Position numbers and translations under genes: made by a program. The notes under the pieces were generated by a model, which saw only the letters and a program-made list of their open reading frames with translations, was not told the origin of the DNA and searched no databases. A DNA stretch of 60,509 nucleotides, taken from NCBI GenBank assembly GCA_964620535.1, contig CAZUHN010000237.1, positions 1 through 60,509 of the forward strand, written 5' to 3'. Shown piece after piece: positions 3,218 through 21,622 of the stretch. The stretch comes from an uncultured Nitrospinaceae bacterium (GTDB taxonomy: Bacteria; UBA8248). The number at the start of each line of letters is the position of its first letter. Position 1 is the stretch's first letter.

Positions 3218-4792
3218 GTGAATATTTCTATAATCACCTGGATGGTGTTTCTGCCTCTCGCGGGAGGGTTGCTCCTCGCCGTCGCGGGCGAGGAGGATGA
3301 GGCGGGCCGCCGGCGCGAGCGCGTCATCTCGCTCGCCGTCTCCCTCATCACCTTTGTTCTCTCCCTCGGCCTGTATTACGGCTTCCGGGCCGACTACGCG
3401 GGGATGCAGTTCGTCGAAAGATTCGACTGGATCCCCCGGTTTGGTATCGCCTACAAGGTGGGGATTGACGGAATCAGCCTCCCGCTCGTCCTGCTCACCA
3501 CCTTCCTCACCCCGGTTGCGATACTCTCTTCCTGGCAGGATATTCAAAAACACGTCCGCATTTATCACATGGCCATTCTCTTCCTCGAAACCGGCATGCT
3601 CGGGGTGTTCGTCGCTCTCGATTTCTTCCTTTTCTACGTTTTCTGGGAGGCGATGCTCATTCCGATGTACCTGATAATCGGGGTGTGGGGGGGGGCAAAA
3701 CGCATCTACGCCGCCGTGAAGTTTTTCCTCTACACCATGGCGGGAAGCGTGCTGATGCTGGTTGCCATTTTATGGCTGTATTTCGCGAACGGCGCGGCCA
3801 CCTTCGATATCCTGACGTATTTGGAAAGGCCGGTTCACGCCTCTTTGCAGGGCTGGCTCTTCGTCGCCTTCGCCCTTTCGTTTGCGATCAAGGTGCCAAT
3901 GTTTCCCTTCCACACCTGGCTGCCCGATGCGCATGTGGAGGCGCCGACGGCGGGAAGCGTCATCCTGGCCGGCGTGTTGCTAAAAATGGGTACGTACGGG
4001 TTCATGCGTCTGGCCATGCCGCTCTTCCCCGCCGCGGCCAGGGCTTTCGCCCCTCTTATCTTGATCCTAGCGGTCATCGGGATCATTTACGGGGCGCTGG
4101 TGGCCATGATCCAGGAGGATGTCAAGAAACTTGTGGCGTATTCCTCGGTGAGCCATCTGGGGTTTGTGATGCTGGGTCTTTTTTCCTTTAATCTGCTCGG
4201 CGCGGAAGGGGGGTTGATCCAAATGGTGAATCACGGAATCAGCACCGGTGCCCTCTTCCTCATCGTCGGGATGATCTACAGTAGGCGGCATACGCGCCTC
4301 ATCGAGGATTTCGGCGGACTCGCCCGGGTGATGCCCGCATTTTCGGTCTTTTTCGTGTTGGCCGCCCTCAGCAGCATCGGGTTGCCGGGCTTAAACGGTT
4401 TTGTGGGAGAGTTCACGATTCTCCTGGGCGCCTTCCAGAGCCGGCCCGTATTCGCCGTCCTGGCCACGGCGGGGGTGGTGCTGGCCGCGGTGTATATGCT
4501 CTGGATGCTTCAGCGGGTTCTCTTCGGCGGGGAGGCCTCGCGGGTGAACCGAATGCTGCCCGATCTGGGCGTGCGCGAGTGGGTGGTGATATTTCCGATG
4601 GTGGCGCTCATGTTCTGGATTGGCCTTTATCCGAAGCCTATTTTTCGCGTAATGGAACCGTCCGTCCAAGCCTGGCTTCGGCAGGTGAACCGGCGGGTCC
4701 TCCGCGTGGAGATGCCCGTGGCAGCCCCGGCGGCGAACATCGCAAATGTTGCCATTTCCGCGCGGATCGGTTCTGAAGGAAAGCGGCCGTGA
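3218..4792 (+). CDS. nuoM: NADH-quinone oxidoreductase subunit M (copy 1)
   Basis: 524 aa with the NuoM signature [43 protein letters not shown] start preceded by GAGGAGG. Confidence 0.95.
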
Positions 4793-6267
4793 CGCTCACC
4801 TTTCCCCTCATCGATTGGCCGGTGATCTTTCCCGTCATACTGGTGGTGATTGGCGGGGTTCTCGTCTTGGCGTGGGACACTTTCTTCCGCGGAGATGCGC
4901 GCTCCCTTGTCATAACCCTATCGCTCGGAACGCTCGGAGCCGCGATGGGAGTGACCATTTTCGCCCGCCCAGTGAACGAAACCGCTCTTTCCCTCGGGGG
5001 TTTGTATCTCTTCGATGGATTCACCCAGTTTGTCTTCTTTTTGATTCTGCTTTCGAGCTTTATCTCGATCTTGGTTTCTGCGTCCCAGCCCGAACTGGAG
5101 AAGGCCCCCCCCGGCGAGTACTACTGCCTCATTCTTTTCGCCACCTGCGGGATGATGCTGATGGCGGCGACCCGGAACATGCTCATGGTGTTCATCGGCC
5201 TCGAACTCTTCTCGATATCGCTCTACGTTCTTGCCGGGTATCTGCGCTCGCGGCTACAAGGAAACGAAGCCGCGTTGAAGTACTTTCTGTTGGGGTCATT
5301 CGCGTCCGGGTTTCTCCTTTACGGAATGGCGCTCATCTACGGGACGACGGGCACTGTCGATATCATGAAGGCGGCCGAGCACCTTGCCCAGAATCCCGCC
5401 TCCCGCAGCTTGGCGTTTTTGCTGGGGGTGGGATTCGTTGTGATGGGCCTGGGTTTCAAAGTGGCGGCGGTCCCTTTTTATATGTGGACGCCGGACGTGT
5501 ACGAAGGATCCCCGACCTCGGTGACGGCGTTCATGTCGGTGGGGCCGAAGGCGGCGGCGTTCGCGGCGTTTTTCCGCCTCGTCATCTCGACCGCCCCCCA
5601 CATCGGCGCCGAGATCGGCGCGGTGCTTTGGACGATGGCGGCCCTCACCATGACGGTGGCGAACGTAGTTGCCATATGGCAGTCGAACATCAAGCGGATG
5701 TTGGCGTACTCAAGCATTTCCCACGCGGGGTATCTGCTCGTCGCGCTCGTGGCCGCGAAGGACGGGGGCGACCTGGCGACGGGCGGATTTCTGTACTACA
5801 TGCTCGTCTATTTGTTCATGAATCTGGGGGCTTTTTGCGTTGTGGTGGCGACGGGCGCGGGGGGGAGGGAGCGGGTGGAAATCGAAGAATACGCCGGGAT
5901 GGGCTATACGTGCCCCGGCCTCGCTTTCGCGATGGCGATTTTCATGGTCTCCCTCGCGGGGCTTCCTCCCACGGGCGGGTTTGTCGCCAAATTTTACGTT
6001 TTCAGCGCCGCGGTAAAGGCGGGCCACGTTGCCCTCGTCGTCATCGCCGTTCTCAATAGTGTGATTGCGGTTTACTTCTATCTCCGCATTGTGGTCGTGA
6101 TGTACATGCGGGAGGCCTCTGCGGGGGCGGCCGCTGTAGTGCTGGGCCGGACCCGGCCTTACGCCATCGCCACACTCGTAATCGGGGTGGTGGCCACCCT
6201 GAATTTGGGAATATTTCCGGCTAAATTTATGGAGATCGCCCAGCGCTCGGCGGACCTTTTGAACTAG
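4789..6267 (+). CDS. nuoN: NADH-quinone oxidoreductase subunit N (copy 1)
   Basis: 492 aa with the NuoN signature [37 protein letters not shown] start overlaps the nuoM stop by 4 nt. Confidence 0.94.
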
Positions 6268-6333
6268 GGCGGGGGGGATGGTTTTTTCCCGGGGGCCCGT
6301 GCTATAAAGTTCCCGGCAGTTGGGGACTTTCCT

Positions 6334-6358
6334 GAGCCGCCTCGTTGCGGGGCGGCTC
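6334..6358 (+). terminator. Candidate stem-loop terminator between the two nuo operons
   Basis: GAGCCGCC (6334-6341) pairs with GGCGGCTC (6351-6358) across a 9-nt loop, followed by only TT. The weak U-tract makes this tentative. Confidence 0.3.
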
Positions 6359-6453
6359 TTGCTTGCTGGCCCCGTCTTATATTGCTCCCTTTTTGAAGTG
6401 GCGAAGGGCTCGGCTCTGGCCGTATACCGTTTTGAGGCGAGGTTTCGGGGGAT

Positions 6454-6846
6454 ATGGAATTCGTTTCCGGATTTTTCCGTGAATATCAAGCAATAAATAG
6501 CTACGTTCCCCTTTTTATTTTCACCTTGGTCGCTATCGGATTTGCGGGCGTAACTCTCCTTGTCGCCCTTTTGATTCGCCCGAACCGGCCGGATCCAGAG
6601 AAGAATTCCCCCTATGAATGCGGCATTCCGCCTCTTACCGAGGCGCACGAGCGTTTTTCCATTCGGTTCTATCTTTTGGGAATCCTTTTTCTTCTCTTCG
6701 ATGTAGAGGCTGCATTTCTTTTCCCTTGGGCCGTGCGGTACGACGCGCTTGGGCTTTTCGGCTTCATCGAAATGATGCTGTTCATTTTTATCCTTCTGAT
6801 TGGTTTCTTTTACGCATGGCGGAAGGGGGCGCTGGAATGGGCATAG
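6454..6846 (+). CDS. nuoA: NADH-quinone oxidoreductase subunit A (copy 2 operon)
   Basis: 130 aa with NSPYECG and [15 protein letters not shown] motifs typical of NuoA/ND3. Confidence 0.94.
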
Positions 6847-7313
6847 TTGAAGGAAAATTCAGCGATAATTTCTTAACCACCAAGCTGGATAGCCTAGTGG
6901 CGTGGGCACGAAAGAGCGCCCTTTGGCCGATGACTTTCGGCCTCGCCTGCTGCGCCATCGAAATGATGGCCTCGGGCGCCTCGCGTTACGATTTTGATCG
7001 ATTTGGCGTTATTTTTCGGGCCACCCCTCGGCAATCCGACGTAATGATCGTGGCCGGAACGGTGACCCATAAAATGGGGTCAGTTTTGCGGAAAGTGTAC
7101 GACCAGATGCCCGAGCCAAGATGGGTCATATCCATGGGCAACTGTTCGACATGCGGAGGTCCTTATCCGAACTATGCTGTCGTGCAAGGCGTCGATGAAC
7201 TGGTGCCGGTGGATGTCTATGTGTCTGGTTGCCCGCCGCGTCCCGAATCTTTGATGTGGGGTGTGATGCAGCTTCAGAAGAAAATTGAACAGGAAAAATT
7301 CATCCGCGCATAA
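6837..7313 (+). CDS. nuoB: NADH-quinone oxidoreductase subunit B (copy 2 operon)
   Basis: Within ORF 6618..7313, the ATG at 6837 gives MGIVEGKF...[15 protein letters not shown]...MGNCSTCGG...SGCPPRPE, which supplies the N2 cluster cysteines. It overlaps the nuoA stop by 10 nt. Confidence 0.93.
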
Positions 7314-7335
7314 AGGTGCGGCAAGAAGAGTAACG

Positions 7336-7920
7336 ATGGAAGAAACCGCCAAAACGAAGGGGAATACAGAAGGCGACTCTGATACAGAGGCGCCCGAGGC
7401 CCCAAAAGAATTTCCCGGAAAAGATCTGGGAGATCTGATAGACAGGGAGTTTCCGGGAGCCATACTCGAAGAGTCGGCCTTCAAAGATCTTGAAGACGAG
7501 GTAACCTTCATTCTTAAAATTGACGCTTGGCGGAAAGTCGCTGTCTTCATGAGGGATCATCCATCATCCAAATTTGTTCTTCTAACTGACCTCACCGCAG
7601 CTCATTATCCCGAAGAGGAAGAACCATTTCAGATCATCTGCCAAATGGTCAGCCTTGAGCACAATCGCAGCCTTCGATTGAAGGTGAAAATAAAAGAGGG
7701 AGTTTCGGTTCCCTCGCTCTCGGGAATTTGGTCCAGCGCAAATTGGATGGAGCGCGAAATTTGGGATTTGTACGGCATTCCTTTTCAGGATCACCCGGAC
7801 CTCCGCCGGATCTTGTTGCCGAGGGACTGGGGGGGGCACCCGCTTCGCAAGGATTATCCACTCGAGGGCCGCAGAGAGCGTGTGTACGAAAAGCCCAAGC
7901 GCAAGGAAATCGGGGAATAG
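7336..7920 (+). CDS. nuoC: NADH-quinone oxidoreductase subunit C (copy 2 operon)
   Basis: NuoC/30-kDa motifs WSSANWMEREIWDLYGIPFQDHPDLRRILLP. I chose the ATG at 7336, just after the nuoB stop; the ORF track starts at 7285. It has an acidic N-terminal extension. Confidence 0.9.
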   Translation: MEETAKTKGNTEGDSDTEAPEAPKEFPGKDLGDLIDREFPGAILEESAFKDLEDEVTFILKIDAWRKVAVFMRDHPSSKFVLLTDLTAAHYPEEEEPFQIICQMVSLEHNRSLRLKVKIKEGVSVPSLSGIWSSANWMEREIWDLYGIPFQDHPDLRRILLPRDWGGHPLRKDYPLEGRRERVYEKPKRKEIGE

Positions 7921-7993
7921 AGGCTGGCTCCATTCCGAGAAGGAGCAAGGCCATGGGAATGAAGAAGCCGTTACAGTTGGAGAATTAAGCGAT

Positions 7994-9136
7994 ATGTTCG
8001 AAGTAGAGTCCCCTCCCCGGGTGGAAAAATCGAGCATCCTCCCCGGGACCGAGGATCTGGTTGTCAATATGGGGCCGCAGCACCCGAGCACACACGGGGT
8101 GCTACGGGTGATCCTCAAGCTGGACGGCGAGACGGTGACCGATTGTGACGTCGACATCGGGTACCTTCACCGCGGGACTGAAAAGATCGGCGAGAACATC
8201 ACCTATACGATGTTCATTCCCTACACGGATCGGCTTGACTACATCGCTGCGCCATTGAACAACTTGGCATGGGTAACCGCGGTCGAAAAGTTTTTTGACT
8301 GGGAGATCCCGCTGCGCGCGGAATTTGTGCGATCCATGGTGGGGGAGTTCTCACGAATTGCGAGCCACCTTCTATGGCTTGCGACCCACGCCCTGGACAT
8401 CGGTGCGATGACGGTTTTCCTTTGGTGCTTCCGCGAGCGCGAAATGGTTCTCGACATATTTGAAACCGCATTCGGCGCACGCCTTACAGTAAATGCATTC
8501 CGGCTCGGAGGCCTGGAGCAGGACGTACCGAAAAAATTTCTCGATCTTGCGCGGGAGTTCATCGAAATTTTTCCCGACCGCATCAAGGATTATGAGACGC
8601 TTCTAACGGATAACCGCATCTGGATGAAGCGGACCCGCGGTGTGGGCTACATTTCGGCCGAGGATGCCCTCGACCTTGGCTTAACCGGTCCTCCCTTGCG
8701 GGCCAGCGGCGTGAATTGGGATCTTCGCCGCGTTCGGCCCTACGCGGCTTACCCATATTTGGACTTCGTTGTCCCCGTCGGGCAAAATGGGGACGTTTAC
8801 GATCGGTATTTGGTCCGAATCGAAGAGATGCGGCAAAGCACGCGGATCATTGAGCAATGCCTGAATATGCTTCCGAGCGGTCCTGTGAGCTGCAAAACTC
8901 CACGCACAATTAAGCCTCCACCAGGTGAGATTTATCACAGCATCGAAAATCCCAAAGGAGAGTTCGGTTTCTATATCGTGAGTGACGGCACCGAATCGCC
9001 CTACCGGGTACGCATCCGCCCTCCGTCGTTTCTTAACCTTGCCGCTCTCAAAAAGATGGCCGTTGGCGGACTGGTGGCCGACGTGGTTGCCGTCATCGGT
9101 AGCCTTGACATTGTCCTGGGGGAGTGCGACCGCTAA
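7994..9136 (+). CDS. nuoD: NADH-quinone oxidoreductase subunit D (copy 2 operon)
   Basis: NuoD/49-kDa signatures NMGPQHPSTHGVLR and the C-terminal SLDIVLGECDR. I chose the ATG at 7994 (MFEVESPP), downstream of the nuoC stop. Confidence 0.93.
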   Translation: MFEVESPPRVEKSSILPGTEDLVVNMGPQHPSTHGVLRVILKLDGETVTDCDVDIGYLHRGTEKIGENITYTMFIPYTDRLDYIAAPLNNLAWVTAVEKFFDWEIPLRAEFVRSMVGEFSRIASHLLWLATHALDIGAMTVFLWCFREREMVLDIFETAFGARLTVNAFRLGGLEQDVPKKFLDLAREFIEIFPDRIKDYETLLTDNRIWMKRTRGVGYISAEDALDLGLTGPPLRASGVNWDLRRVRPYAAYPYLDFVVPVGQNGDVYDRYLVRIEEMRQSTRIIEQCLNMLPSGPVSCKTPRTIKPPPGEIYHSIENPKGEFGFYIVSDGTESPYRVRIRPPSFLNLAALKKMAVGGLVADVVAVIGSLDIVLGECDR

Positions 9137-9181
9137 TTATGGACGCAATCGCCTGTCGGTTATTTGTAATTTGGTGCATTC

Positions 9182-10240
9182 GTGAGGTGGTTGCTTGACC
9201 CGGCCGGATTGTTCGACAGGAAAAACCTTTTGGCGGAATGGCACAAAGGTAGAGAGGGGTTCGGTCCTTTGGACATAATATTTGAAATCGTCATCGCCAC
9301 AATAAAGATCGCTGTCGTCCTCGGCGTAGTATCTCTCGTTGTGGCGTACCTTACTTATTTGGAACGGAAAGTCATCGCGCACATACAGATGCGTATGGGG
9401 CCTATGCGGGTAGGCTGGCACGGCCTTCTCCAGCCGATCGCTGATGGACTCAAACTATTCCTAAAAGAAGATATTATTCCGGACAAGGCGGATCGAATCG
9501 TCTTTATTCTTGCGCCCATTATGGTTCTCGTTCCTGCCTTTGTGGTCTATTCGGTTCTTCCCTTTAGCGAAACTTTTTATATCACTCAGGTAAACATCGG
9601 ATTGTTACTTATCATTTCGGTGAGTTCGCTCGGTGTTTTCGGGATCGTAATGGCCGGTTGGGCTTCCAACAGCAAGTACAGTCTTTTGGGCGCCATGCGG
9701 AGCGCGGCGCAAATGCTGAGCTACGAAATTTTCCTCGGATTTTCACTAATCGGACCCCTGATGATCGCTGGCACCCTGAACATGCAGGAGATCGTCAAGG
9801 CCCAAAGCGATGTTTGGTTCATCGTGTATCAACCGCTTGCATTCATTGTTTTTTTTGTAGCCTCTCTTGCGGAGACGAACCGCGTACCATTCGATTTGCC
9901 CGAGGCGGAAACGGAATTAGTCGCTGGATTTCACACCGAATATAGCGGAATGAAATTCGCTTTCTTCTTTTTGGCTGAGTATGCCAACATCATGGTGGTT
10001 GCAACGGTGGGCGTAGCTCTTTTTTTTGGCGGCTGGCAGGGCATCGCGGGAATACCGCTACCCGGATTCGTTTGGTATGTTCTCAAACTGTTCGCGTTGA
10101 TATTTTTGTTTATATGGTTGCGCGCTACCCTTCCGCGCTATCGGTATGACCAGCTCATGGCAATGGGCTGGAAGTTCATGTTTCCCCTTGTTATGGCGAA
10201 CATTTTCCTGACCGGTTTGGTGAAATACCTCTTTCTTTAA
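9182..10240 (+). CDS. nuoH: NADH-quinone oxidoreductase subunit H (copy 2 operon)
   Basis: 352 aa with [34 protein letters not shown] and [27 protein letters not shown]. It follows nuoD after a 45-nt gap, so no nuoEFG lies between them. Confidence 0.94.
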
Positions 10241-10261
10241 CTTTAAGAGGAGACGAACATC

Positions 10262-10771
10262 TTGGAGTTGCCCTTCTTTTACTTATTCTCGACAGGAATT
10301 GTGATCGCTTCGCTATTGATGGTGACGCGCGCCAACGTCATACACGCGGGTCTATTGTTGGTTCTCACATTCTTGTTCCTAGCGGGATTGTACGTTCTTA
10401 TGGGGGCGGAGTTTCTCGCTGCGCTACAGATACTTATTTACGCCGGTGGAATTATGGTTCTGTACCTTTTTTCTGTCATGCTTATGAATATCGATGTGGC
10501 GAGGCGCCTTCGGAAATGGCATCGGCAGAGCTTCGCAGCTCTTGCGGTGACAGTCGTTCTTGCCATAGAGGTTTGGATTGTTCTTGGAGATGGAAATTTT
10601 CCCGCACAGAAAAGCCCTTCCGGGACACTCGGCGCCACTCCCGGAAATGTCGAGGCTCTCGGAAACGTTCTTTACACAAAGTTCTTGTTCCCTTTTGAAG
10701 TCGTTTCGATTTTATTGCTCGCGGCGATGATCGGCGCGATCGTCCTGGCGAAGCGGACGATAGAGCGCTAG
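10262..10771 (+). CDS. nuoJ: NADH-quinone oxidoreductase subunit J (copy 2)
   Basis: 169 aa, paralogous to 406..945 ([21 protein letters not shown]). It starts 21 nt after the nuoH stop, so no nuoI lies between them. TTG start preceded by AAGAGGAG. Confidence 0.9.
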
Positions 10772-10790
10772 AAATCGGAGGAAAGAGTCG

Positions 10791-11093
10791 ATGGTGCCGC
10801 TTTCCCATTATTTGGCACTGGGGGCAATCCTATTTCTGATCGGTGCGGGAGGGGTGTTGATGCGCCGAAACGCGATCATCATCCTGATGAGCATAGAACT
10901 GATTTTGAATGCGGTTAACGTTACTTTCGTGGGCTTCTCGCGCCAACTCGGGGACCTGACGGGTCAGGTATTCGCCATATTCGTCATCGCGGTAGCGGCG
11001 GCTGAGGCGGCCGTAGGGCTGGCCATCCTGGTAACGCTCAACCGGGATCGGTCCACGGTGAACGTGGACGAAGTGAACCTTCTCAAGTGGTAG
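10791..11093 (+). CDS. nuoK: NADH-quinone oxidoreductase subunit K (copy 2)
   Basis: 100 aa with [20 protein letters not shown] and [14 protein letters not shown]. Confidence 0.93.
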
Positions 11094-11100
11094 AAAAGGC

Positions 11101-13173
11101 ATGATTTCGTACATCTGGCTCGTCCCGCTTTTGCCGGCGATCGGCGTTCTCATCAACGGATTTTTGGGGGCGAAGTACACGCGTGAAAAGGCGGGCCACA
11201 TTGCCTGCCTGATGACGGGCCTTTCATTTCTCGTTGCGCTTTTAATCAGTTTCGAGATGATTTTTGGCGAAGGGGGCAGCCATACGGTTCATCTCTGGAG
11301 CTGGATCGCAGCGGGTGATTTGAATGTATCGGTAAGCCTGCTCGTTGACCCCCTGAGCACAATTATGCTCCTCGTGGTGACGGGGGTGGGCTTCGTCATC
11401 CACGTCTACTCGCTGGGCTATATGCACGGAGATCCCGGCTACCCCCGGTTTTTCACCTACCTGAACCTATTCATGCTCTCCATGCTCATCCTCATTTTGG
11501 CGGACAACTTTCTCCTCATGTTCGTCGGTTGGGAAGGGGTTGGCCTTTGCAGCTATTTGTTGATCGGATTCTGGTACGAGAAACAATCGGCCTCTGACGC
11601 AGGCAAGAAGGCCTTCATCGTGAATCGGGTGGGGGACGCGGGTTTCCTCCTTGGCATGTTCCTTATCTGGGTTCTGACGGGAAGCCTGACCTACAGTGAA
11701 GTATTTAAAGAGGCGCCCCAACTTTCGGCGGCGGGAGCGAGCGCCATTGGGCTTTTTCTCTTCATCGGCGCAATGGGGAAAAGCGCGCAAATTCCGCTTT
11801 ATGTCTGGCTCCCGGACGCGATGGAGGGCCCCACGCCGGTGAGCGCTCTGATCCATGCGGCCACCATGGTCACCGCTGGGGTCTACATGGTGGCGCGCTC
11901 AAGCCATATCTACGTCATGGGGGGCGCCATCCCCCTTGATTTCCTGGGGCTCGAAATCCCATCGGTGCTCGAAGTCATCGCCGTGGTGGGTGCCCTCACG
12001 GCTTTGATGGCCGCTACGATCGGTCTCGTCCAAAATGATATCAAGCGCGTCTTGGCCTATAGCACGGTGAGCCAGCTCGGCTTCATGTTCATGGCCCTCG
12101 GCGTGGGCGCCTTCACGGCCGGCATCTTCCACCTCATGACCCATGCCTTTTTCAAGGGACTTCTCTTTCTCGGAAGTGGAAGCGTCATTCACGCCCTGCA
12201 TCACGCCCCCGTGGACCAACAGCAAGACATGCGCTATATGGGTGGGCTTCGCACGAAGATGCCCGTTACCTACTGGACCTTCGTGATAGGTGCGGTCGCG
12301 ATTGCGGGGGTCCCGCCGCTGGCTGGATTCTGGAGCAAGGATGAGATTCTCGCCAATGCGTTTTTCACCGGCCATTTTCCCATCTGGGCCATCGGAACCG
12401 TCGCCGCCTTCATGACCGCTTTTTATATGTTCCGGCTCATTTTCATGACTTTCCACGGGGAGATGCGCGTGGACCATCACGCCCGTGAGTATATTCATGA
12501 ATCACCCGCATCCATGACAGTGCCCCTCGTGATATTAGCTATCCTCAGCGTCATTGGAGGAATCATTCCGGGATTTCCGCCTGAGGGGGGGTGGATCCAT
12601 GGGTTTCTCGAACCCTCTCTCGCTACCCTGGGAGGTGGACACGCCGCGGCCGACCCGCGGATCATTTTCGTTTCCACTGCGGCGGAAGGGACGAATGGCG
12701 GAGGTCATGGAGGACCGGCTGCGCCTTTGCTTGTCGTGCTCGCCATCGCAGTTGCTCTCGGGGGCATCGCACTGGCCTGGCATATGTATATTCGAAGGCC
12801 CGCCACTCCAGATTTCCTCGCGGCCCAATTTCCCGGGTTGTACCGGATCTTCCTAAACAAATACTACGTAGATGAGTTCTATCAGACCTACATCGTCGAG
12901 CCCATCTACCGTCTCATGAATTTTCTTTGGGACTTTGACGCCAAGGTAGTCGATGGCGCGGTCAACGGGAGCAGTCTTATTACGGTGGTAACCTCTCGTT
13001 TTTCGGGAATTTTCGATCTTCAGACGGTAGACGGCGCCGTGAACGGAACCGGGTCGGTCGTCCGATTTTTCTCGCAGGCGCTGAAATTCATACAGTCCGG
13101 CATGGTACAAAACTATGTTTTCTTTATGTTGATCGGTTTATTTTTGATGCTCAGCGGCTACCTTTTCCGCTAG
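11101..13173 (+). CDS. nuoL: NADH-quinone oxidoreductase subunit L (copy 2), with extended C-terminal region
   Basis: 690 aa with core GKSAQIPLYVWLPDAMEGPTPVSALIHAATMVTAGVY. It is 54 aa longer than copy 1, owing to a Gly/His-rich loop insertion and a 26-residue tandem duplication in the lateral-helix segment. Confidence 0.94.
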   Translation: MISYIWLVPLLPAIGVLINGFLGAKYTREKAGHIACLMTGLSFLVALLISFEMIFGEGGSHTVHLWSWIAAGDLNVSVSLLVDPLSTIMLLVVTGVGFVIHVYSLGYMHGDPGYPRFFTYLNLFMLSMLILILADNFLLMFVGWEGVGLCSYLLIGFWYEKQSASDAGKKAFIVNRVGDAGFLLGMFLIWVLTGSLTYSEVFKEAPQLSAAGASAIGLFLFIGAMGKSAQIPLYVWLPDAMEGPTPVSALIHAATMVTAGVYMVARSSHIYVMGGAIPLDFLGLEIPSVLEVIAVVGALTALMAATIGLVQNDIKRVLAYSTVSQLGFMFMALGVGAFTAGIFHLMTHAFFKGLLFLGSGSVIHALHHAPVDQQQDMRYMGGLRTKMPVTYWTFVIGAVAIAGVPPLAGFWSKDEILANAFFTGHFPIWAIGTVAAFMTAFYMFRLIFMTFHGEMRVDHHAREYIHESPASMTVPLVILAILSVIGGIIPGFPPEGGWIHGFLEPSLATLGGGHAAADPRIIFVSTAAEGTNGGGHGGPAAPLLVVLAIAVALGGIALAWHMYIRRPATPDFLAAQFPGLYRIFLNKYYVDEFYQTYIVEPIYRLMNFLWDFDAKVVDGAVNGSSLITVVTSRFSGIFDLQTVDGAVNGTGSVVRFFSQALKFIQSGMVQNYVFFMLIGLFLMLSGYLFR

Positions 13174-13195
13174 CGGACGGTATTCGGAGGTTTCT

Positions 13196-14785
13196 ATGGG
13201 CAACATCATGGAATTTCCCCTCCTCACGTTGATCACTTTTCTCCCTCTTTTGGGAGGAGTGATCTTGATGCTCTTTTTTAAGAAAGAGCACACAAAGGCC
13301 ATCAAGTCCTTTGCGACAATCGTCGTCTTGGTGGACTTTTTCCTTTCCATTCCTCTTTGGACAAATTTTGATACATCGGAGGCGGGATTCCAATTCTTAG
13401 AGAAAGCGATCTGGATTCCGGCCATCGGTGTGAATTATCTGATTGCAGTGGACGGAATCAGCGTTCTCCTTGTTCTTCTGACGACGCTGACCATGGTCGT
13501 CTCGGTGGTCTGTTCTTATTCCGCGATCAAAGAGCGGGAGAAAGAATATTACGTTTGCATGTTGTTCCTCGCAACGGGAATGATCGGTACATTCGTCTCC
13601 CTTGACCTATTTCTTTTCTACGTATTCTTCGAAATTACCCTTGTTCCGATGTATTTCTTGATTGGAATCTGGGGAGGAACCCGGAAGCTCTACGCCGCAA
13701 TAAAGTTCTTTCTCTACACGCTGTTCGGAAGCGTGCTCATGTTGTTGGGAATCTTGGCTCTGTATTTCTTCAATTTAAAATCGGGGACGGGTCAATTCAC
13801 CTTTAGTCTCCTTGAACTTTATGATGTCGGGCCGAAAATTCCGCTGGAAGTTCAAAATTGGATTTTCTTGGCTTTCTTCGTCGGGTTTGCGATCAAAGTG
13901 CCAATGTTTCCCTTCCACACTTGGCTGCCTGACGCCCACGTAGAGGCCCCCACGGCGGGCAGCGTAATTTTGGCGGGCGTTCTTTTGAAAATGGGAACTT
14001 ACGGTTTTGTCCGCTTCATGCTTCCATTGCTTCCCCAGGCGAGCCAATTTTTTGTCCCCTTCATGGTTCTGCTGGCGATCATCGGAATCATTTATGGCGC
14101 GTTGGTCGCCATGGCCCAGACAGACGTCAAGAAGCTTGTGGCTTACTCGTCGGTTAGCCATCTGGGATTTGTCATGCTGGGCGTTTTTGCTTTGAACCAG
14201 CAGGGCATCCTTGGCGGCCAACTTCAGATGGTCAATCATGGAATAAGCACCGGGGCGCTCTTCCTTCTGGTTGGAATCATTTACGAACGGCGGCACACCC
14301 GCGAGATCACCGATTTCGGCGGACTTTCGAAACAAGTTCCCATTTATTCGACCATATTTGCCATAACCATGCTGAGCAGCATCGGCCTGCCGGGCCTCAA
14401 CGGATTTGTGGGAGAGTTTTTGATTCTGATTGGTGTTTTCAAGGTAAGCAGCCTCTACGCAGCCTTCGCTGTGATTGGAATCATTCTGGGCGCCGCCTAC
14501 ATGCTCTGGCTGTTTCAAAGGATGTTCTTCGGGGTGTTGGAAAATCCGGAGAACCAGAGGCTGACAGACTGTAACAAGCGCGAGGTAGTCTACATGCTGC
14601 CTCTTATATTGTTGATGTTCTGGATCGGTCTATATCCGAAGCCCTTCCTGGATCGCATGGAGAAAAGTGTGAGCAAGGTGGTTCGGATGGTGAATGTGGC
14701 CCAGGCGCCGCAAGGAAAGCGGGTGAGTGCCATTCCGAATCCGGTGGCGTTCCTTAAGGCAAAAGAGGCGCGCCTGGCGCGCTAG
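13196..14785 (+). CDS. nuoM: NADH-quinone oxidoreductase subunit M (copy 2)
   Basis: 529 aa with [40 protein letters not shown], matching copy 1 in this motif. Confidence 0.95.
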   Translation: MGNIMEFPLLTLITFLPLLGGVILMLFFKKEHTKAIKSFATIVVLVDFFLSIPLWTNFDTSEAGFQFLEKAIWIPAIGVNYLIAVDGISVLLVLLTTLTMVVSVVCSYSAIKEREKEYYVCMLFLATGMIGTFVSLDLFLFYVFFEITLVPMYFLIGIWGGTRKLYAAIKFFLYTLFGSVLMLLGILALYFFNLKSGTGQFTFSLLELYDVGPKIPLEVQNWIFLAFFVGFAIKVPMFPFHTWLPDAHVEAPTAGSVILAGVLLKMGTYGFVRFMLPLLPQASQFFVPFMVLLAIIGIIYGALVAMAQTDVKKLVAYSSVSHLGFVMLGVFALNQQGILGGQLQMVNHGISTGALFLLVGIIYERRHTREITDFGGLSKQVPIYSTIFAITMLSSIGLPGLNGFVGEFLILIGVFKVSSLYAAFAVIGIILGAAYMLWLFQRMFFGVLENPENQRLTDCNKREVVYMLPLILLMFWIGLYPKPFLDRMEKSVSKVVRMVNVAQAPQGKRVSAIPNPVAFLKAKEARLAR

Positions 14786-14794
14786 GAATATGCG

Positions 14795-16312
14795 TTGGAG
14801 CCAGGTTTGATGGACATTGTTTTTCCGGACATTTCTTTTTGGCTGGCGGCACCCGAGATCGGGCTTGCTGTCCTAATCGGTATCGTCTTGATTGCGGACC
14901 TTTTTACCCCCCTCGAGAACAAGGCAGCGATGGGCGTCCTGAGCCTGGTCGGCGTCATCCTCCTCGTTTTCGTGAGTTTCTGGCAGTGGGGCGAGGGCAT
15001 GCGGACCACCTTCAGCGGCTTCTATGTGGTGGACAACTTCAGCGTTTTCGTGAAGGTCGTCATCCTTGCCGCCACGGCGCTTTCGATCTCTCTTTCTCTG
15101 CAATACGTGAAAGTCGAGAGAATCAACTACGGCGAGTTCTACGGATTGATCCTTTTCTCGGTGTTCGGGATGCTCGTGATGGCTTCGGGAAATGATCTCA
15201 TCTCGATCTATCTTGGCATTGAGACCATGAGTTTAAGCATCTATGTCCTCGTCGGGTTCATTCGCCATGATCCTCTGAGCCGGGAGGCATCATTAAAATA
15301 TTTCCTGATGGGCGCATTTGCCTCTGGAATCGTTTTGTACGGAATGGCGCTGACGTACGGTATGACAGGCACCACATCACTGGCCGGGATTTCCGAGTCG
15401 CTCTCGGGCGCGGGAGGAGGGGAAATCTCTTCGAATCCTGTCATGATTTTCGCTCTCATTCTTCTTGTGGCGGGTTTCGCGTTTAAGCTTGCTCTTGCTC
15501 CGTTCCATATGTGGCTTCCTGATGCGTATACAGGTGCCCCTACGACAATTACGGCCTTTATGTCGGTTGCCGTGAAGGCCGCCGCGTCCGCGGCATTGAT
15601 TCGTCTTTTTTTCATCGGACTCCAGGTACTGGCACCCAGGTGGAACTTCCTACTATGGCTGCTCGCTGCCTCCACCATGATCTGGGGAAATGTCGCCGCC
15701 ATTGCCCAAACCAGTCTCAAACGGATGCTTGCTTATTCGAGCATTGCCCATGTGGGTTACTTATTGTTGGGTGTGGTAGCGGCCATGACCATCAATGACG
15801 ACGGGAAGGTGGTTTTTAGCAATGAAGGGGTTAGCGCCGTCCTTTTCTATCTGTTGGTATACATGTTCACCAATCTGGGCGCATTCGGGATGCTCATTCT
15901 AATTTGCCGGGAGGGCTATCGGGGGGACAACATCGAGGACTGGCGAGGAGTCGGGCAGGCCCACCCTATCGTCGGACTTTCTTTCGTTGTGTTTTTGCTT
16001 TCATTGGCGGGAATACCTCCCACGGCGGGATTTGTGGGAAAACTAATCCTTTTTGCAGCCGCCATTCAAAACCAATACTATTGGCTTGCCGTGATTGGGA
16101 TACTTTCGAGCGCCGTCTCGATTTACTACTACGGCCACATCATGCGGGTGATGTACATGAACCCGAGGACTACGAGCCAGCCCCCAATTGAATTTTCGAA
16201 ATCCCCCTCTCTTCTGCTCACCCTATTACTATTGGTCATCGCCACCATTGCGCTCGGAATTTTTCCGGGCAGCTTTATCGAAGCGGCTCGAGGATCTGTT
16301 CTGGGCATCTGA
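14795..16312 (+). CDS. nuoN: NADH-quinone oxidoreductase subunit N (copy 2)
   Basis: 505 aa with FKLALAPFHMWLPDAYTGAPTTITAFMSVAVKAA. The start is either the TTG at 14795 or the ATG at 14810. Confidence 0.93.
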   Translation: MEPGLMDIVFPDISFWLAAPEIGLAVLIGIVLIADLFTPLENKAAMGVLSLVGVILLVFVSFWQWGEGMRTTFSGFYVVDNFSVFVKVVILAATALSISLSLQYVKVERINYGEFYGLILFSVFGMLVMASGNDLISIYLGIETMSLSIYVLVGFIRHDPLSREASLKYFLMGAFASGIVLYGMALTYGMTGTTSLAGISESLSGAGGGEISSNPVMIFALILLVAGFAFKLALAPFHMWLPDAYTGAPTTITAFMSVAVKAAASAALIRLFFIGLQVLAPRWNFLLWLLAASTMIWGNVAAIAQTSLKRMLAYSSIAHVGYLLLGVVAAMTINDDGKVVFSNEGVSAVLFYLLVYMFTNLGAFGMLILICREGYRGDNIEDWRGVGQAHPIVGLSFVVFLLSLAGIPPTAGFVGKLILFAAAIQNQYYWLAVIGILSSAVSIYYYGHIMRVMYMNPRTTSQPPIEFSKSPSLLLTLLLLVIATIALGIFPGSFIEAARGSVLGI

Positions 16313-16628
16313 TCTTTCCAAGGATTCATAAGCTTTCCCCATTCCATCAATTAATTTCCCTCCAATCCATTAATTTTTCTGGTAACCACCAAAATTCATT
16401 GACGTATCAATTGTTATGAAGGGAATCCTGCCCTGGCTTAAGAAAAACCAAACTGACAAATTGTCTCAATAATTTCTTGAATTCCTGAAATTGTGTGAAT
16501 GGGTTTCCTTAATATCACTTTATTATTTGAGTTTATACCGTTATATTAATATGGGGAATCGGGTGTAAAGCTTTGTTTTTATGCTTTTAACATTTTATTT
16601 GTATTATTTGAGCACTTTTATAAACGTT

Positions 16629-16644
16629 TGGCATGTCATGTGCG
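16629..16644 (+). promoter_or_regulatory. Sigma-54-like -24/-12 element (tentative)
   Basis: TGGCATGTCATGTGCG has GG and GC at the canonical 12-nt register of TGGCAC-N5-TTGC. It lies in an AT-rich spacer, and the -12 half is GTGC rather than TTGC. Confidence 0.2.
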
Positions 16645-16790
16645 TATATTTAGGTGTCAGGGAACGTCTGAGAATGCCGATAAGAACGGCAGAAAGAAAA
16701 ACAGCTTTTTGTTTAGCTGAAGCCCTCGGTGTTCTTGAGGGAATAGACCAGGAAGGGAGGAGAACCTGGGATTATAATAATTGCCTGCTA

Positions 16791-16818
16791 AGGCGGCTTT
16801 TCCTTAGAAAAGCCGTTT
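16791..16818 (+). terminator. Stem-loop, terminator-like
   Basis: CGGCTTTT (16794-16801) pairs with AAAAGCCG (16808-16815) across the 6-nt loop CCTTAG, followed by TTT. Confidence 0.3.
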
Positions 16819-17060
16819 GCCCCCCGGTGGCCGGTTGCGAAACTCACTCGATGCCGGTCCACTGCATCCCACCAAATGCCCGCAGGGTGACCTGATAGGG
16901 CCCTTTACTTTTTGTCAAAAACAATAAATTGACACTCCTTCTGATCGGATGGAGGTGCAACCTGTTTCAGTTGATAGATAAGCGGCCGAGGGATTCAGGA
17001 TCACACGGAGAAAAACGTATCGTAGCGGAAACTTGCATTGAATTTATTTCGAAAAAAATA

Positions 17061-17654: not shown

Positions 17655-18662
17655 TCAGAGCACCTTGCTGATTTCATCAGCATCGAACCGTGGAAGCGGA
17701 AATCGTTTCCCACTTTGGAGAATGGTTACGCCTTCGGCGGGAGGCAGGAGAGTTCCGATCCGGATTCCCAGGCCACCCGCCTCTTCGAGGATCCCCCGAA
17801 GGAAGTTTTCGTTTTCCGGCGGAACGGCGAGTAGAAGCGCCCCCGAGGTGATGACCCCCAAAGGATCAATGCCGAGGGCCGAACAAATGGCCGCTCCCTC
17901 CTGCGAAATTGGAACGGCGTCTTTCTCTACGAGGGCGCCCAGCCGAGCCGCTTCGGCCAACTCGTGCACCCCAGTGGCCAGACCGCCTTCCGTCGGATCG
18001 TGCATTGCGTTGACGAAGCCGGTTTCCGCCGCTGCGAGAGCAAGGCGAACTACGCTGATTCCCGGATCCGTTAAATAGTTTTCCGCTCGATGGATTAAAT
18101 CGGAACCAAGAGTCGGGATGAGTTCTTCCCGCTTCGCCGCTGCCAGGACGGCTGTTCCTTCTACCGGAATTGCACGGGTAAGTAAGATAACGTCACCTGG
18201 TTGGGCACTGTCTCCGCGGACGAGGCGTTCCTTATTTACCTCCCCAAGCATTTGACCGCAGAGAACGGGCCGGGTGAGACCTTGGGTGATCTCTGTGTGT
18301 CCGCCACATAGGGTGATACCAAGATCCTCGCAGGCGCTTCGAACGTCGGCCCAAATAGTTTCCACCATCTTCTCGTCAGCAAGATTTTCAGGAAGAAGAA
18401 GAGTCATCAGAAACCAAAAGGGTTGTGTGCCCATACATGCGATGTCGTTTGCGTTTACGTGCACTGCATACCACCCGATTCGACCTTCGACGAAAGTGAC
18501 GGGGTCGGATTTCGCGACCAGGTAACGATCTCCCAAATCGATGACGGCTGCGTCCTCTCCAACGCGCGGGCCGATGATCAGGCGTGGGTGTCCTTCAAGC
18601 TTCATTAACATTTTTCCGAGCATTTCTGCGGGAAGTTTTCCGACGGGAAGAAAGGTCTTCAC
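17655..18662 (-). CDS. AIR synthase-related protein (PurM/HypE/SelD superfamily)
   Basis: 335 aa with GEDAAVIDLGDRYLVAKSDP, NANDIACMG, GGHTE and DPTEGGLA, the typical PurM-fold ATP-binding motifs. There is no N-terminal Cys/Sec-Gly-x-Lys motif. It sits 12 nt upstream of the HAD gene. Confidence 0.8.
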   Translation of the reverse strand: MKTFLPVGKLPAEMLGKMLMKLEGHPRLIIGPRVGEDAAVIDLGDRYLVAKSDPVTFVEGRIGWYAVHVNANDIACMGTQPFWFLMTLLLPENLADEKMVETIWADVRSACEDLGITLCGGHTEITQGLTRPVLCGQMLGEVNKERLVRGDSAQPGDVILLTRAIPVEGTAVLAAAKREELIPTLGSDLIHRAENYLTDPGISVVRLALAAAETGFVNAMHDPTEGGLATGVHELAEAARLGALVEKDAVPISQEGAAICSALGIDPLGVITSGALLLAVPPENENFLRGILEEAGGLGIRIGTLLPPAEGVTILQSGKRFPLPRFDADEISKVL

Positions 18663-18816
18663 TGTGTCTCCACTTCACGTTTGGGAGCGTACCAAGTCTA
18701 ACAATACAGCTCCTCCTGGACAAAATGATGCGGATGGACCGGCCTAGGCTGTTTATTCCTTGCGCCAATCAATTTGAATTTGAAACGGGTTTTTCTCAAT
18801 TCATTTTCGCAGGGCC

Positions 18817-18845
18817 TTGACGCGTCTAATAGGCCATTTTAGAAT
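18817..18845 (+). promoter_or_regulatory. Sigma-70-like promoter upstream of tRNA-Phe
   Basis: TTGACG (18817-18822), a 17-nt spacer, then TAGAAT (18840-18845), about 85 nt upstream of the tRNA. Confidence 0.45.
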
Positions 18846-18932
18846 CGATTCCTTTTCTGGGGATGGATTTTGTTAAGTATGTGAAAGGTTTTGGCAGCGG
18901 TTCGTGAGAATATCAATTCACTTTCCCATCAT

Positions 18933-19008
<76 letters not shown>

Positions 19009-19445
19009 GTCGAATCGCCCACCCCTCGTCGTCTCCGGATAATGCAGTATTTCTTGTGCATCGCCCGCCCGGTCATCTATATGACAGAATGGGGAATGCG
19101 AAATCGGTGGATGGCTGCGGGGATGTGCCGCCGCTGTCTGCCGCCTGGGGGTTCGCGTACCGGGCGGCCGATTTTCAATCACCCAGAAGTCGCTTTGGGC
19201 ACTCGAAATTCTGGCCGCGTTGGGGTTTTGCTGCGATTAGAGCGTTATCCCGGTGAAGAACTGGCACGATGGAATCTGACGCGCCCTCCCAATATTGGTC
19301 CATTTCGTGAGATGATTTCTGGTCGCTTGGATTTGCCTCCCCCTTTCGGGTCCGGCCTCTATGCGACCCTTCCGGCTGCACCCCTCAAGGAAGAGGTCAA
19401 AGGGCTCTGGCCTCGCGGGAACGCCATGCGAGCCCTTATGCTGGA

Positions 19446-20720
19446 TTGATAGAATTTTTCACCTGGTTGTTTCCCCTTTGCGAGTCGAGATCCTTGGCAC
19501 GTCTATTTGAGAACGATTCCCTCGAGTTGATCGGCCGCTGGGGCGTGGAAGTCCCGGCATTTGAGGTGGCCGAGAGCCCGGAGGAGGTCGCCGCCGCCCT
19601 GGAGCGCCTGGGGGGAAGGGTCGTCCTCAAGGCGCTCGTTCCGGTGGGAGGGCGGGGCAAGGCGGGCGCGGTGAAGCTCGTCTCCTCGCCGGAAGAAGCA
19701 CGCGAAGAGGGCGGCCGCATCCTCGGCCTCACGGTTCACCGCTTTCCCGTCAAACGCCTCCTCGTGATGGAGGCGCTGGAGATCCGGCGCGAATTTTTCC
19801 TCTCCATCACCTTCGACCCCAAGCACAAGAGTCCCCTCGTCCTCTTCAGCGCCGAGGGAGGGATCGACATCGAAGAGCTCGTGGCGGACCACCCCGAAAA
19901 GATCTTCGAGTTTCCGGTGGACATCACCCGGGGGCTCGAGGCCCGCCGCGGGTCGGACCTCGCCGGGCGCGCCGGGCTAGCGGAGGATGCTTCCCTTCTC
20001 TGCGGTCGGGCGATGCAGGGTCTCTACGAGCTGTTCCGGGCGTGCGACTGCCGGATGGTGGAGGTGAACCCGCTGGCCGAACTCGCGGGCGGGCGCCTCG
20101 TGGCGGGCTCGGGGGTGGTTAATCTGGACGAGCAGGCCCTGCACCGCCATCCGGACCTGGAAAAACTCGTGAGAGAGGAGGAGGGGAACGGCTGGCGGCC
20201 CCTGACGCCCCTCGAGCGCGAGATGCGCGAGATCGACGCCATCGACCCCCACAGCGGGGCCATCCGCTTCGGCGAAATGGAGGGCGACATCGCCTTCATG
20301 GTGACGGGGGGCGGGTACGGCCTCGCGAGCCTCGGCCAGTTCCTCGAGGAAGGGGGCCGGCCGGCCTGCACCTTCGATATCACCCCGGGGCGCTACGAGG
20401 AGAAGATGTACCGGGCCGTCAAGGCGGTTCTCTCCCAGCCGGGGCTCCGGGGGCTGGTTCTGGCCGGGAATGTGAGCAATTTCACCCGGGTGGATATCAA
20501 GGTGGCGGGGGTGGTCCGCGGCCTCAAGGAAGCGGGCCTCGATTTCAACAAAATTCCCGTCGTCATCCGCTACGCCGGACCCGGGATCGAGGAGGCGCGC
20601 CGGATGATCGCCGAGGTGCCCGGGGTGGAGTGGCACGAGGCGGACTTCTCCCTCGAAGCGGTCTGCAGGCGCATCGTGGACCTCGCCTATCGGCGCGGAG
20701 AAGGAAAGGAGCGTGCGTGA
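19446..20720 (+). CDS. Succinyl-CoA synthetase beta-subunit-like protein (ATP-grasp, ADP-forming acyl-CoA synthetase family)
   Basis: VVLKALVPVGGRGKAGAVKLV matches the SucC ATP-grasp motif. The remainder is divergent (FMVTGGGYGLASL instead of CMVNGAGLAMGT). The in-frame TTG at 19494 (MARLFENDSLELIGRWGV) is an alternative start. Confidence 0.8.
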   Translation: MIEFFTWLFPLCESRSLARLFENDSLELIGRWGVEVPAFEVAESPEEVAAALERLGGRVVLKALVPVGGRGKAGAVKLVSSPEEAREEGGRILGLTVHRFPVKRLLVMEALEIRREFFLSITFDPKHKSPLVLFSAEGGIDIEELVADHPEKIFEFPVDITRGLEARRGSDLAGRAGLAEDASLLCGRAMQGLYELFRACDCRMVEVNPLAELAGGRLVAGSGVVNLDEQALHRHPDLEKLVREEEGNGWRPLTPLEREMREIDAIDPHSGAIRFGEMEGDIAFMVTGGGYGLASLGQFLEEGGRPACTFDITPGRYEEKMYRAVKAVLSQPGLRGLVLAGNVSNFTRVDIKVAGVVRGLKEAGLDFNKIPVVIRYAGPGIEEARRMIAEVPGVEWHEADFSLEAVCRRIVDLAYRRGEGKERA

Positions 20721-21622
20721 GCATCATACTCGACGGAGCGACCCGCGTTCTCGTCCAGGGGATCACCGGAGCAGAGGCGCGCCGCCTCCTTCCCACCATG
20801 CGCGATTACGGGACGAACGTCGTGGCCGGGGTTTCGCCCGGAAAGGGGGGGCAGAAGGTGGACGGCGTTCCCGTCTTCAGCACAGCGGAGGCCGCCCTTC
20901 GCGAGGTGGAGGTGGACATTTCCGTCCTATTCATCCCGGCGCGCTTCGTGCGCGATGCCGCTCTCGAGGCGATCGGGGCCGGGGTTCCCGCCGTCCATGT
21001 TCTCGCCGAGGGAGTTCCCCACCACGACGCCTGCGAGATCGTCACCCGGGGAAAATCGGCCGGCACCTTCATCATCGGGCCCAACAGCCAGGGGATGGTC
21101 TCTCCGGGCAAGGCCAAGCTGGGGGGGACCGGTGGCGAGGTTCCCGGCCTCATGTTCCGTCCCGGGCCGGTCGGTGTGGTGAGCCGGAGCGGGGGGATGG
21201 GGGCGGAGATCTGCCTCTTCCTCACCCTGGCGGGAATCGGCCAGAGTACCTACGTCGCCATTGGGGGGGACCTCATCATCGGCGCCGCGTTCGTGGAGAT
21301 GCTGGAACTCTTCGAGCGGGACCCCGAAACCGAGTGCGTGGTCATATTCGGCGAGCCGGGCACAGGCCGCGAGGAGGAGGCGGCGGAGTTCATCGCCGCG
21401 GGCGGATTCACGAAGCCGGTGGTGGCCATGATCCCGGGCGAGTTCCTGGAGAACTCTCCGAGCCCCACAAGCCTGGGCCACACTGGGGCTCTCATCGAGC
21501 GCGGGGTGGGCGCCCCCTCGGGGAAAAAGAAACTCCTGCGCGAGGCGGGAGCGGAGATAGCCGAGCACTTTTCCGATATCGTTCCTCTGGTGGCAAAAGC
21601 GCTCGAACGGCGGATCATCTGA
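20717..21622 (+). CDS. Succinyl-CoA synthetase alpha-subunit-like protein (CoA-binding, phosphohistidine subunit)
   Basis: GTG at 20717 overlaps the upstream stop (GTGA) and follows AAGGAAAGGAG. Contains VLVQGITGAEAR, VAGVSPGKGGQKVDGVPVF, SRSGGMGAE and GHTGALI (catalytic His). Confidence 0.85.
   Translation: MSIILDGATRVLVQGITGAEARRLLPTMRDYGTNVVAGVSPGKGGQKVDGVPVFSTAEAALREVEVDISVLFIPARFVRDAALEAIGAGVPAVHVLAEGVPHHDACEIVTRGKSAGTFIIGPNSQGMVSPGKAKLGGTGGEVPGLMFRPGPVGVVSRSGGMGAEICLFLTLAGIGQSTYVAIGGDLIIGAAFVEMLELFERDPETECVVIFGEPGTGREEEAAEFIAAGGFTKPVVAMIPGEFLENSPSPTSLGHTGALIERGVGAPSGKKKLLREAGAEIAEHFSDIVPLVAKALERRII

Follow-up and report, generated by a model that had tools for sequence, protein, structure and literature searches.

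A tandem duplication in the lateral helix of a NuoL subunit encoded with a single nuoM in an uncultured Nitrospinaceae bacterium

Introduction

The stretch of DNA discussed here, referred to throughout as the window, comprises 60,509 nucleotides from an uncultured Nitrospinaceae bacterium (GCA_964620535.1, contig CAZUHN010000237.1, positions 1 to 60,509), and the first 16.3 kb of it is occupied by two gene sets for respiratory complex I, both on the + strand. Operon 1, which is truncated by the window start, consists of nuoI (partial), J, K, L1, M1, and N1, and operon 2 is nuoABCDHJKLMN at 6454–16312. The subject of this analysis is nuoL2, the nuoL gene of operon 2 (11101–13173, +), whose 690-residue product carries a tandem duplication of a 26-residue unit in the lateral helix HL, and which is accompanied by one nuoM gene only. 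This combination bears on the so-called 2M complex I, which is described as having a second NuoM together with a lengthened NuoL, the 26-residue HL insertion of the latter being postulated to span four pump subunits (PMC6606698, PMC9040806, PMC7117926); the description is traced by those citing papers to Chadwick et al. 2018 (ISME J 12:2668). An earlier note on this DNA had mentioned such a class, and the class is indeed real (PMC6606698, PMC9040806). The HL insertion is the only sequence evidence for a real fourth pump in 2M complex I, and the inference of a fourth pump feeds models of reverse electron transport for nitrite-, manganese-, and other lithotrophs.

Duplicated unit of NuoL2

The translation of nuoL2 contains KVVDGAVNGSSLITVVTSRFSGIFDLQTVDGAVNGTGSVVRFFSQALKFIQSG, in which the motif VDGAVNG starts at residues 617 and 643 (617–623 and 643–649), and the Asp codons of the two copies, GAT at 12952 and GAC at 13030, are 78 nt apart, which bears out the 26-codon tandem duplication that the earlier note had described. 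The best repeat frame starts at the FD dipeptide and yields unit 1, F612–I637 (FDAKVVDGAVNG..., 12934–13011, +), and unit 2, F638–F663 (FDLQTVDGAVNG..., 13012–13089, +), the protein reading FDAKVVDGAVNGSSLITVVTSRFSGI-FDLQTVDGAVNGTGSVVRFFSQALKF-IQSG over this part, with 10 of the 26 residues identical between the units. Alignment places unit 2 without gaps on the single unit of NuoL1, and unit 1, delimited by the repeat alignment and by its conservation across phyla, is the net insertion. Measured from the YVDE motif to LQTG/IQSG, HL has 76 residues in NuoL2 and 51 in NuoL1; the gain between these landmarks is 25, a small correction to the net insertion of 26 residues that had been claimed, because one extra residue lies upstream in NuoL1.

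At the DNA level, positions 12946–13023 and 13024–13101 agree in 30 of 78 bases (38%), an identity so low that a DNA-level repeat search missed the duplication and which means that the duplication is old and not recent. The same low identity is what would speak for the repeat being a chance resemblance or an artefact of assembly or sequencing, an explanation to which we give practically no credence: the reading frame is intact, an exact 7-residue repeat arises in just 31 of 20,000 composition-preserving shuffles of NuoL2, and the double motif with its 26-residue spacing recurs in 118 of the 120 best homologues, down to 56% identity, as well as in dozens of GTDB genomes. The 118 are the homologues with an intact, pattern-matching tail, and they come from metagenome-assembled genomes (MAGs) named Nitrospinota, Tectomicrobia, and Entotheonellia, that is, from independent assemblies, which refutes an artefact. 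The duplication in NuoL2 is thus real, ancient, and conserved. Carrying the HL insertion of about 26 residues by which the 2M type is described, NuoL2 is, judged by its sequence, a 2M-type NuoL with a long clamp, and together with operon 2 it fits the description of an extended-HL NuoL without an extra NuoM.

Position within the subunit

NuoL2 passes the equivalog models for NuoL (NF005141, 749 bits against a cut-off of 556; TIGR01974, 748 bits), and the Proton_antipo_N and Proton_antipo_M domains of Pfam are found in its homologues. Membership of the Mrp antiporters or of green complex I is not indicated by the Mrp models, which score 260–311 bits, far under their cut-offs and under NuoL, and the neighbors of nuoL2 are nuo and not Mrp genes. 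A Foldseek search with the predicted model matched only canonical NuoL, ND5, and NdhF chains, with TM-scores of 0.68–0.88 against chains of Paracoccus, Escherichia coli, Mycobacterium smegmatis, and Thermosynechococcus elongatus. The C-terminal arrangement of transmembrane helix 15 (TM15), HL, and TM16 is recognizable both from the alignment to solved chains and from the AlphaFold helices (540–565, 587–640/651–663, and up to 689). On this basis HL is placed at residues about 587–663 (12859–13089, +), from low-confidence AlphaFold helices and HL lengths, and is followed by the TM16 anchor helix (13090–13170, +; AlphaFold and conservation), whose IQSGMVQNY motif is common to canonical NuoL (LQTGxVKxYAL).

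Both units align to one and the same segment of T. elongatus NdhF1 (606–625) and of M. smegmatis NuoL (574–622), which in the solved chains lies between the YFDE motif and TM16, so that the repeat is a genuine tandem copy of a single piece of HL. The alignment check that the earlier note had called for thus confirms that the insert falls in the HL segment. In E. coli the equivalent segment, D563-P564-L565-N566, forms the kink of the long helix and its closest contact with NuoM (PMC3274701).

The other check that had been proposed, helix versus loop by structure prediction, comes out in favor of a helix, but at low confidence. In an AlphaFold2 model of NuoL2 built with 37 sequences, a continuous helix covers residues 587–640, and breaks at 641–643 and 648–650, which coincide with the second VDGAVNG, separate it from helices at 644–647 and 651–689; in the NuoL1 control the helices lie at 557–580, 584–598, and 610–635. 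The predicted local distance difference test score (pLDDT) is below 50 through NuoL2 residues 620–674, and likewise below 50 in the corresponding region of the control, so that the model lends weak support to the insert forming a helix rather than a loop. Separately, a Gly/Ala-rich stretch (ATLGGGHAAADPRIIFVSTAAEGTNGGGHGGPAAP; window 12613–12720, residues about 505–540) lies between TM14 and TM15 of NuoL2; it is modeled as coil with pLDDT below 50 and is absent from NuoL1.

Sequence conservation

Conservation was assessed over 16 long-clamp proteins from many phyla whose operons have a single nuoM (hereafter single-M). Unit 1, with the consensus FDxxVVDGAVNGxxxxTxxxSxxSGxxD, is as conserved as unit 2, and the TM16 motif of the long-clamp proteins, LQTGxVQNYAL, is the same as in canonical NuoL. 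Unit 1 resembles the unit 1 of other phyla (42%) more than the unit 2 of its own protein (34%), a relation that holds outside the core motif as well (24% across phyla against 14%), and the duplication therefore predates these lineages. Each unit is thus under constraints of its own, which is not what one would expect of a decaying relic.

A profile search of 1.84 billion representatives gave 3705 hits at E ≤ 1e-10, and among the 88 measurable proteins drawn from the best 150 of these, HL has 75–79 residues in 81 and exactly 76 in 69. Three NuoL proteins have an HL of 102–105 residues, that is, three units. One of them, P0206 (768 residues; locus L091, 185–2491), is followed by one M and one N, and it is the only three-unit case with usable context, the two others being fragments on contigs shorter than 2 kb. 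Multi-unit C-termini are seen in P0206, P0135, P0137, and P0127, and one fragment, on a 1.9-kb contig, has five near-identical HL units and may be an assembly artefact. Because three-unit NuoL proteins (and a five-unit fragment) occur, the 26-residue HL unit duplicates recurrently.

Gene content of the operons

All genes described in this section lie on the + strand, and NCBIfam names the large proteins of both sets unambiguously as NuoL, NuoM, and NuoN. Operon 1 begins within the 3' part of nuoI1 (1–381; 2x[4Fe-4S] subunit, truncated by the window start), identified by Pfam Fer4 and Fer4_7 and by the gene order I-J-K-L-M-N, and continues with nuoJ1 (406–945; Oxidored_q3, E 3.7e-40), nuoK1 (973–1275; Oxidored_q2), nuoL1 (1278–3188), nuoM1 (3218–4792; NDH_I_M, 650 bits), and nuoN1 (4789–6267; NDH_I_N, 419 bits). 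NuoL1 is a canonical protein of 636 residues with a single HL unit, as indicated by the NCBIfam NuoL model (743 bits), its HL length, and the AlphaFold control. A gap of 186 bp (6268–6453) follows, and in it, between nuoN1 and nuoA2, lies a GC-rich hairpin (GAGCCGCC...GGCGGCTC) with a T-rich tail at about 6335–6365. This weak terminator-like hairpin could be a terminator that separates the two operons; a terminator consensus scan of it gave no more than shuffled expectation.

Operon 2 opens with nuoA2 (6454–6846; Oxidored_q4) and nuoB2 (6837–7313; Oxidored_q6), the translation of which keeps the cysteine motifs of cluster N2. The longest open reading frame (ORF) of nuoC2 covers 7285–7920 (Complex1_30kDa; NCBIfam NuoC_fam), with the true start probably downstream. 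It is followed by nuoD2 (7994–9136; Complex1_49kDa), for which relatives have a 380-residue gene call and in which the quinone-site motifs HPSTHG and RLDY are kept, by nuoH2 (9182–10240; Pfam NADHdh, NCBIfam NuoH), by nuoJ2 (10262–10771; Oxidored_q3), and by nuoK2 (10791–11093), assigned by BLAST and its ORF and by Oxidored_q2 in relatives. Downstream of nuoL2 (matched in the PDB by NuoL, ND5, and NdhF) come nuoM2 (13196–14785; NDH_I_M, 640 bits), the sole nuoM of the operon, and the last gene, nuoN2 (14795–16312; NDH_I_N, 438 bits, against 144 bits for NDH_I_M).

There is hence no second nuoM in operon 2, and the L-M-M-N order of the 2M type is replaced by L2 followed by M2 and N2 only; in the whole 60.5-kb window the only further antiporter-like ORFs are L1, M1, and N1. 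The statement of the earlier note that operon 2 has L, M, and N alone is in this way upheld by the NCBIfam naming and by the ORF search. Hidden extra helices in M2 or N2 were ruled out, both proteins being of ordinary length. Operon 2 is also no complete 14-subunit NADH:quinone oxidoreductase operon: nuoE, nuoF, and nuoG are absent, the interval between nuoD2 and nuoH2 (9137–9181) being too small, and so is nuoI, with a gap of 21 nt between nuoH2 (ending at 10240) and nuoJ2 (starting at 10262). The sole NuoI-like ORF of the window is the partial nuoI1. With no nuoI in operon 2, its complex must obtain NuoI from elsewhere or do without clusters N6a and N6b.

Distribution and gene neighborhoods

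Loci were surveyed in one genome per GTDB species, which were scanned with a C-terminal alignment; the distance from YVDE to LQTG was measured, and neighboring genes were typed by BLAST against the subunits of the window itself. Canonical NuoL proteins have an HL of 51–52 residues in this survey and long-clamp proteins one of 76–79. A long clamp occurs with exactly one M and one N at about 28 species-level loci in at least 8 phyla, and with two M genes at 7 (L026, L033, L041, L052, L059, L080, and L082, all in the order L-M-M-N), a ratio that is only indicative, as the sampling favors sequences similar to the query. Among the loci sampled, a long clamp thus occurs more commonly with one M and one N than with two M genes. 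The taxa concerned include Acidobacteriota, Thermoanaerobaculia, Verrucomicrobiota, Chloroflexota (Limnocylindria), Aquificota, Omnitrophota, deltaproteobacterial MAGs, and the clade of the window. The same double unit is present in the true L-M-M-N clusters L026, L041, and L052. Neighbor-joining trees of NuoL cores and of NuoM had long unresolved branches and carried no support values, and they are used only to suggest that the long-clamp proteins are widely spread and that the M pair of the Anaerolineae is specific to that lineage.

The synteny check that had been proposed shows the tandem of (J)KL1M1N1 and then A2...L2M2N2 to be kept in relatives, namely L001–L005 and L085, to about 76% NuoL identity, with L085 repeating the two-operon layout of the window. 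At L086 (2888–15298; GCA_900175145.1, FWWM01000041.1), nuoJKLMN with a canonical L is directly followed by nuoJKL*MN, in which L* is a long-clamp L, with no nuoA-I nearby, a layout which suggests that distal pump modules are interchangeable. L087 has K, L*, M, and N, then unrelated genes, and L088 is a complete 14-gene nuoA-N operon, including E, F, G, and I, in which a long-clamp L is joined by one M and one N, and it adjoins ATP synthase genes. A further L-M-N set is lacking within 10 kb of most single-M long-clamp operons, and a second, convergent N-M-L set lies just downstream at several loci of Acidobacteriota, Verrucomicrobiota, and Chloroflexota (Limnocylindria). Many long-clamp operons of Acidobacteriota, Verrucomicrobiota, and Limnocylindria are of the form nuoA-C-D-H-J-K-L-M-N (L006, L009, L024, L044, L049, L061, L062, L066, L078, and others), nuoB and nuoI having been undetected there by tblastn in up to 10 kb on each side, or less at contig ends.

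Interpretation

In canonical complex I, HL runs from TMH15 to TMH16, with TMH16 adjacent to ND2 and ND4L, and in E. coli and T. thermophilus TMH4 of ND6/NuoJ packs on TMH16, on TMH1 of NuoK, and on TMH6 of NuoN (PMC8762328). Since canonical TM16 docks at this NuoN/NuoK/NuoJ corner, a normal HL already spans M and N. The idea that the added length does no more than move TM16 beyond NuoN, to the border of NuoN and NuoK, was rejected for this reason, canonical TM16 already being docked at ND2, ND4L, and TMH4 of ND6. The reading that we prefer, tentatively and as a nearly even call, is that the membrane arm of the operon 2 enzyme has four antiporter-like positions, of which the fourth has no gene of its own in the operon. 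A 26-residue piece of HL, made up of the FDxxVVDGAVNG kink motif with its following helix, was duplicated in tandem long ago, and the extra unit would lengthen the clamp by the pitch of one antiporter-like subunit, or about 39 Å. Four positions would be the simplest geometry because the TM16 motif is unchanged and canonical TM16 already sits at the N/K/J corner; without a fourth subunit, a helix with 26 more residues would be expected to overshoot toward NuoA/NuoH or to bulge. The fourth position would be taken either by another M2 polypeptide or by a paralogue made elsewhere, for which M1 or N1 next door are the candidates in this genome, and the enzyme would in any case borrow NuoI together with an electron-input module. 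Such a high-stoichiometry isoform may be suited to reverse electron flow in what is likely a chemolithoautotroph; a complex I devoid of the NADH module has been proposed to run in reverse in lithoautotrophs (PMC3578206).

Several observations weigh against four positions. The helix itself is modeled at pLDDT below 50, and the duplication is absent from every PDB match of NuoL2, whether found by alignment or by Foldseek. Were a fourth subunit required, one would look for its gene in more of the operons than the survey shows, most loci being single-M, and the three-unit HL of P0206 is likewise accompanied by one M and one N. The HL of E. coli, moreover, tolerates short flexible insertions at several sites (PMC3274701), so that slack in HL is not lethal. 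The last three of these points also favor an enzyme with three pumps only, L2, M2, and N2. Its extra HL unit would then have been retained for some other purpose: a different partner (another respiratory complex or an unrecognized accessory protein), a TM16 docked further along the arm, or a bulged, reinforced clamp, and the two-M operons would have arisen after their lineages had acquired the long helix. We regard this as a quite plausible account, though one that we would on balance doubt. The complete nuoA-N operon beside ATP synthase genes belongs to the single-M majority on which it draws, and an "evolutionary transition" is one of the readings offered by Yu et al. (PMC9040806). The three-pump account is hard to square with the strict conservation of unit 1 in length and sequence across phyla, which speaks against slack or a relic, and with the unchanged docking motif of TM16; an extra 39 Å would, moreover, be expected to overshoot toward NuoA/NuoH near the quinone entry (as judged from PMC8762328), and no conserved extra membrane gene follows nuoN2.

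The dominance of single-M loci, the lone 14-gene operon, and the three-unit case favor either three pumps or the use of one M product twice, and they speak against a gene in trans being generally required. The second of these options can be generalized, in that the number of HL units would be a ruler for the antiporter-like positions and one nuoM product would fill two of them (L-M-M-N), or three in a three-unit NuoL. This is an unlikely proposition in our estimate, but, if true, an ordinary-looking three-gene pump set would deliver at least 5 H+ per 2 e-, and single-M long-clamp enzymes would be homomeric precursors from which two-M operons arose repeatedly by gene duplication. The earlier note had instead looked to the upstream operon for the fourth pump, as NuoM1 or NuoN1. 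In its favor are the tandem layout conserved in L001–L005 and L085, the direct succession of JKLMN and JKL*MN at L086, the convergent second sets of several Acidobacteriota, Verrucomicrobiota, and Chloroflexota loci, and the fact that operon 2 must presumably borrow NuoI already. We nevertheless consider it improbable as a specific answer for this enzyme, and it is no general one, many extended-HL single-M operons having no second set within 10 kb; M1 and N1 are required 1:1 in their own complex, the gap and the weak terminator-like hairpin part the two operons, and nothing in the sequences ties M1 or N1 to L2.

The wider significance of the preferred four-position arm and of its alternatives lies in what the insertion reports. 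If most long-clamp NuoL proteins sit with one nuoM, then either many "ordinary" operons encode enzymes whose H+/e- ratio has been underestimated, or pump number cannot be read from the insertion, in which case the argument for the 2M enzyme needs direct support. Organisms that carry the long-clamp operon as a complete nuoA-N set would be suitable sources for work on structure or stoichiometry.

Other genes of the window

The 750 bp that follow nuoN2 (16313–17060) contain no convincing gene, are about 82% identical in close relatives, and gave no Rfam match. A small conserved membrane protein encoded there that might fill the space in the arm was considered and rejected: the 104-residue ORF at 16581–16895 has no hydrophobic helix, is conserved no better than the surrounding DNA, is unlike the ORFs that follow nuoN in L086 and L088, and looks non-coding. 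Further downstream, a beta/alpha gene pair resembling succinyl-CoA synthetase (19446–21654) scores well under the family cut-offs and has a weak hit to the citrate-binding domain of ATP-citrate lyase, so that the pair may encode a citryl-CoA or related ligase. A gene of the HemQ/chlorite-dismutase family lies at 24478–25344 (-), and selB and selA at 28052–31463 (-).

A tRNA-Phe(GAA) gene is found at 18933–19008. About where it sits in the window, and downstream of HAD/AIRS genes, the relative L002 has at 18111–19295 an integrase of phage type together with other genes, several of which carry mobile-element or phage-type domains, and none of this is present in the other three relatives; the region may thus be a variable integration hotspot, the equivalence of the site with the tRNA-Phe gene being putative. 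The closest relatives are, by name, Nitrospinota or Tectomicrobia, and gene context and relatives together are compatible with a lithoautotrophic setting, which is a candidate assignment.

Relation to known complex I types

With 2M complex I, NuoL2 shares a 26-residue insertion at the same place in HL, and the inserts of the deltaproteobacterial/Thermodesulfobacteriota L-M-M-N clusters consist of the same double FD..VDGxVNG unit. Operon 2 also lacks the NADH-oxidizing NuoE and NuoF, as the 2M clade of Nitrospira is described to do, but it has a single nuoM, and where that clade lacks nuoH and keeps nuoI, operon 2 lacks nuoG and nuoI and keeps nuoH. With canonical NuoL, Nqo12, ND5, and NdhF, NuoL2 has the fold, the TM15-HL-TM16 layout, and the TM16 motif in common, differing in its two HL units against one. 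The rhizobial green complex I and Complex_I_3 of "Candidatus Manganitrophaceae" resemble it in that their gene content and HL length have been taken to imply more than three pump positions, but they replace NuoL by two MrpD-like subunits, whereas NuoL2 is a single ordinary NuoL.

The closest parallel is provided by Complex_I_1 and Complex_I_2 of the same "Ca. Manganitrophaceae", in which, according to Yu et al. (2022), NuoL carries HL insertions and no extra NuoM is encoded in the cluster, a mismatch that those authors call curious and ascribe to complexes already able to take extra pumps or to an "evolutionary transition" (PMC9040806). Those clusters are described as canonical both in the genes they contain and in the order of these, whereas operon 2 is devoid of E, F, G, and I, and the lineage differs as well, the closest relatives of NuoL2 being named Nitrospinota or Tectomicrobia. 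In view of this precedent, and of the single-M layout being the commoner state in the sampled loci, the suggestion of the earlier note that it represents a different and special genetic solution is not supported. Features of this kind are known, and a long clamp with one nuoM had already been described for a single family and left unexplained; what is new here is the breadth of the single-M long-clamp state and the case with three HL units.

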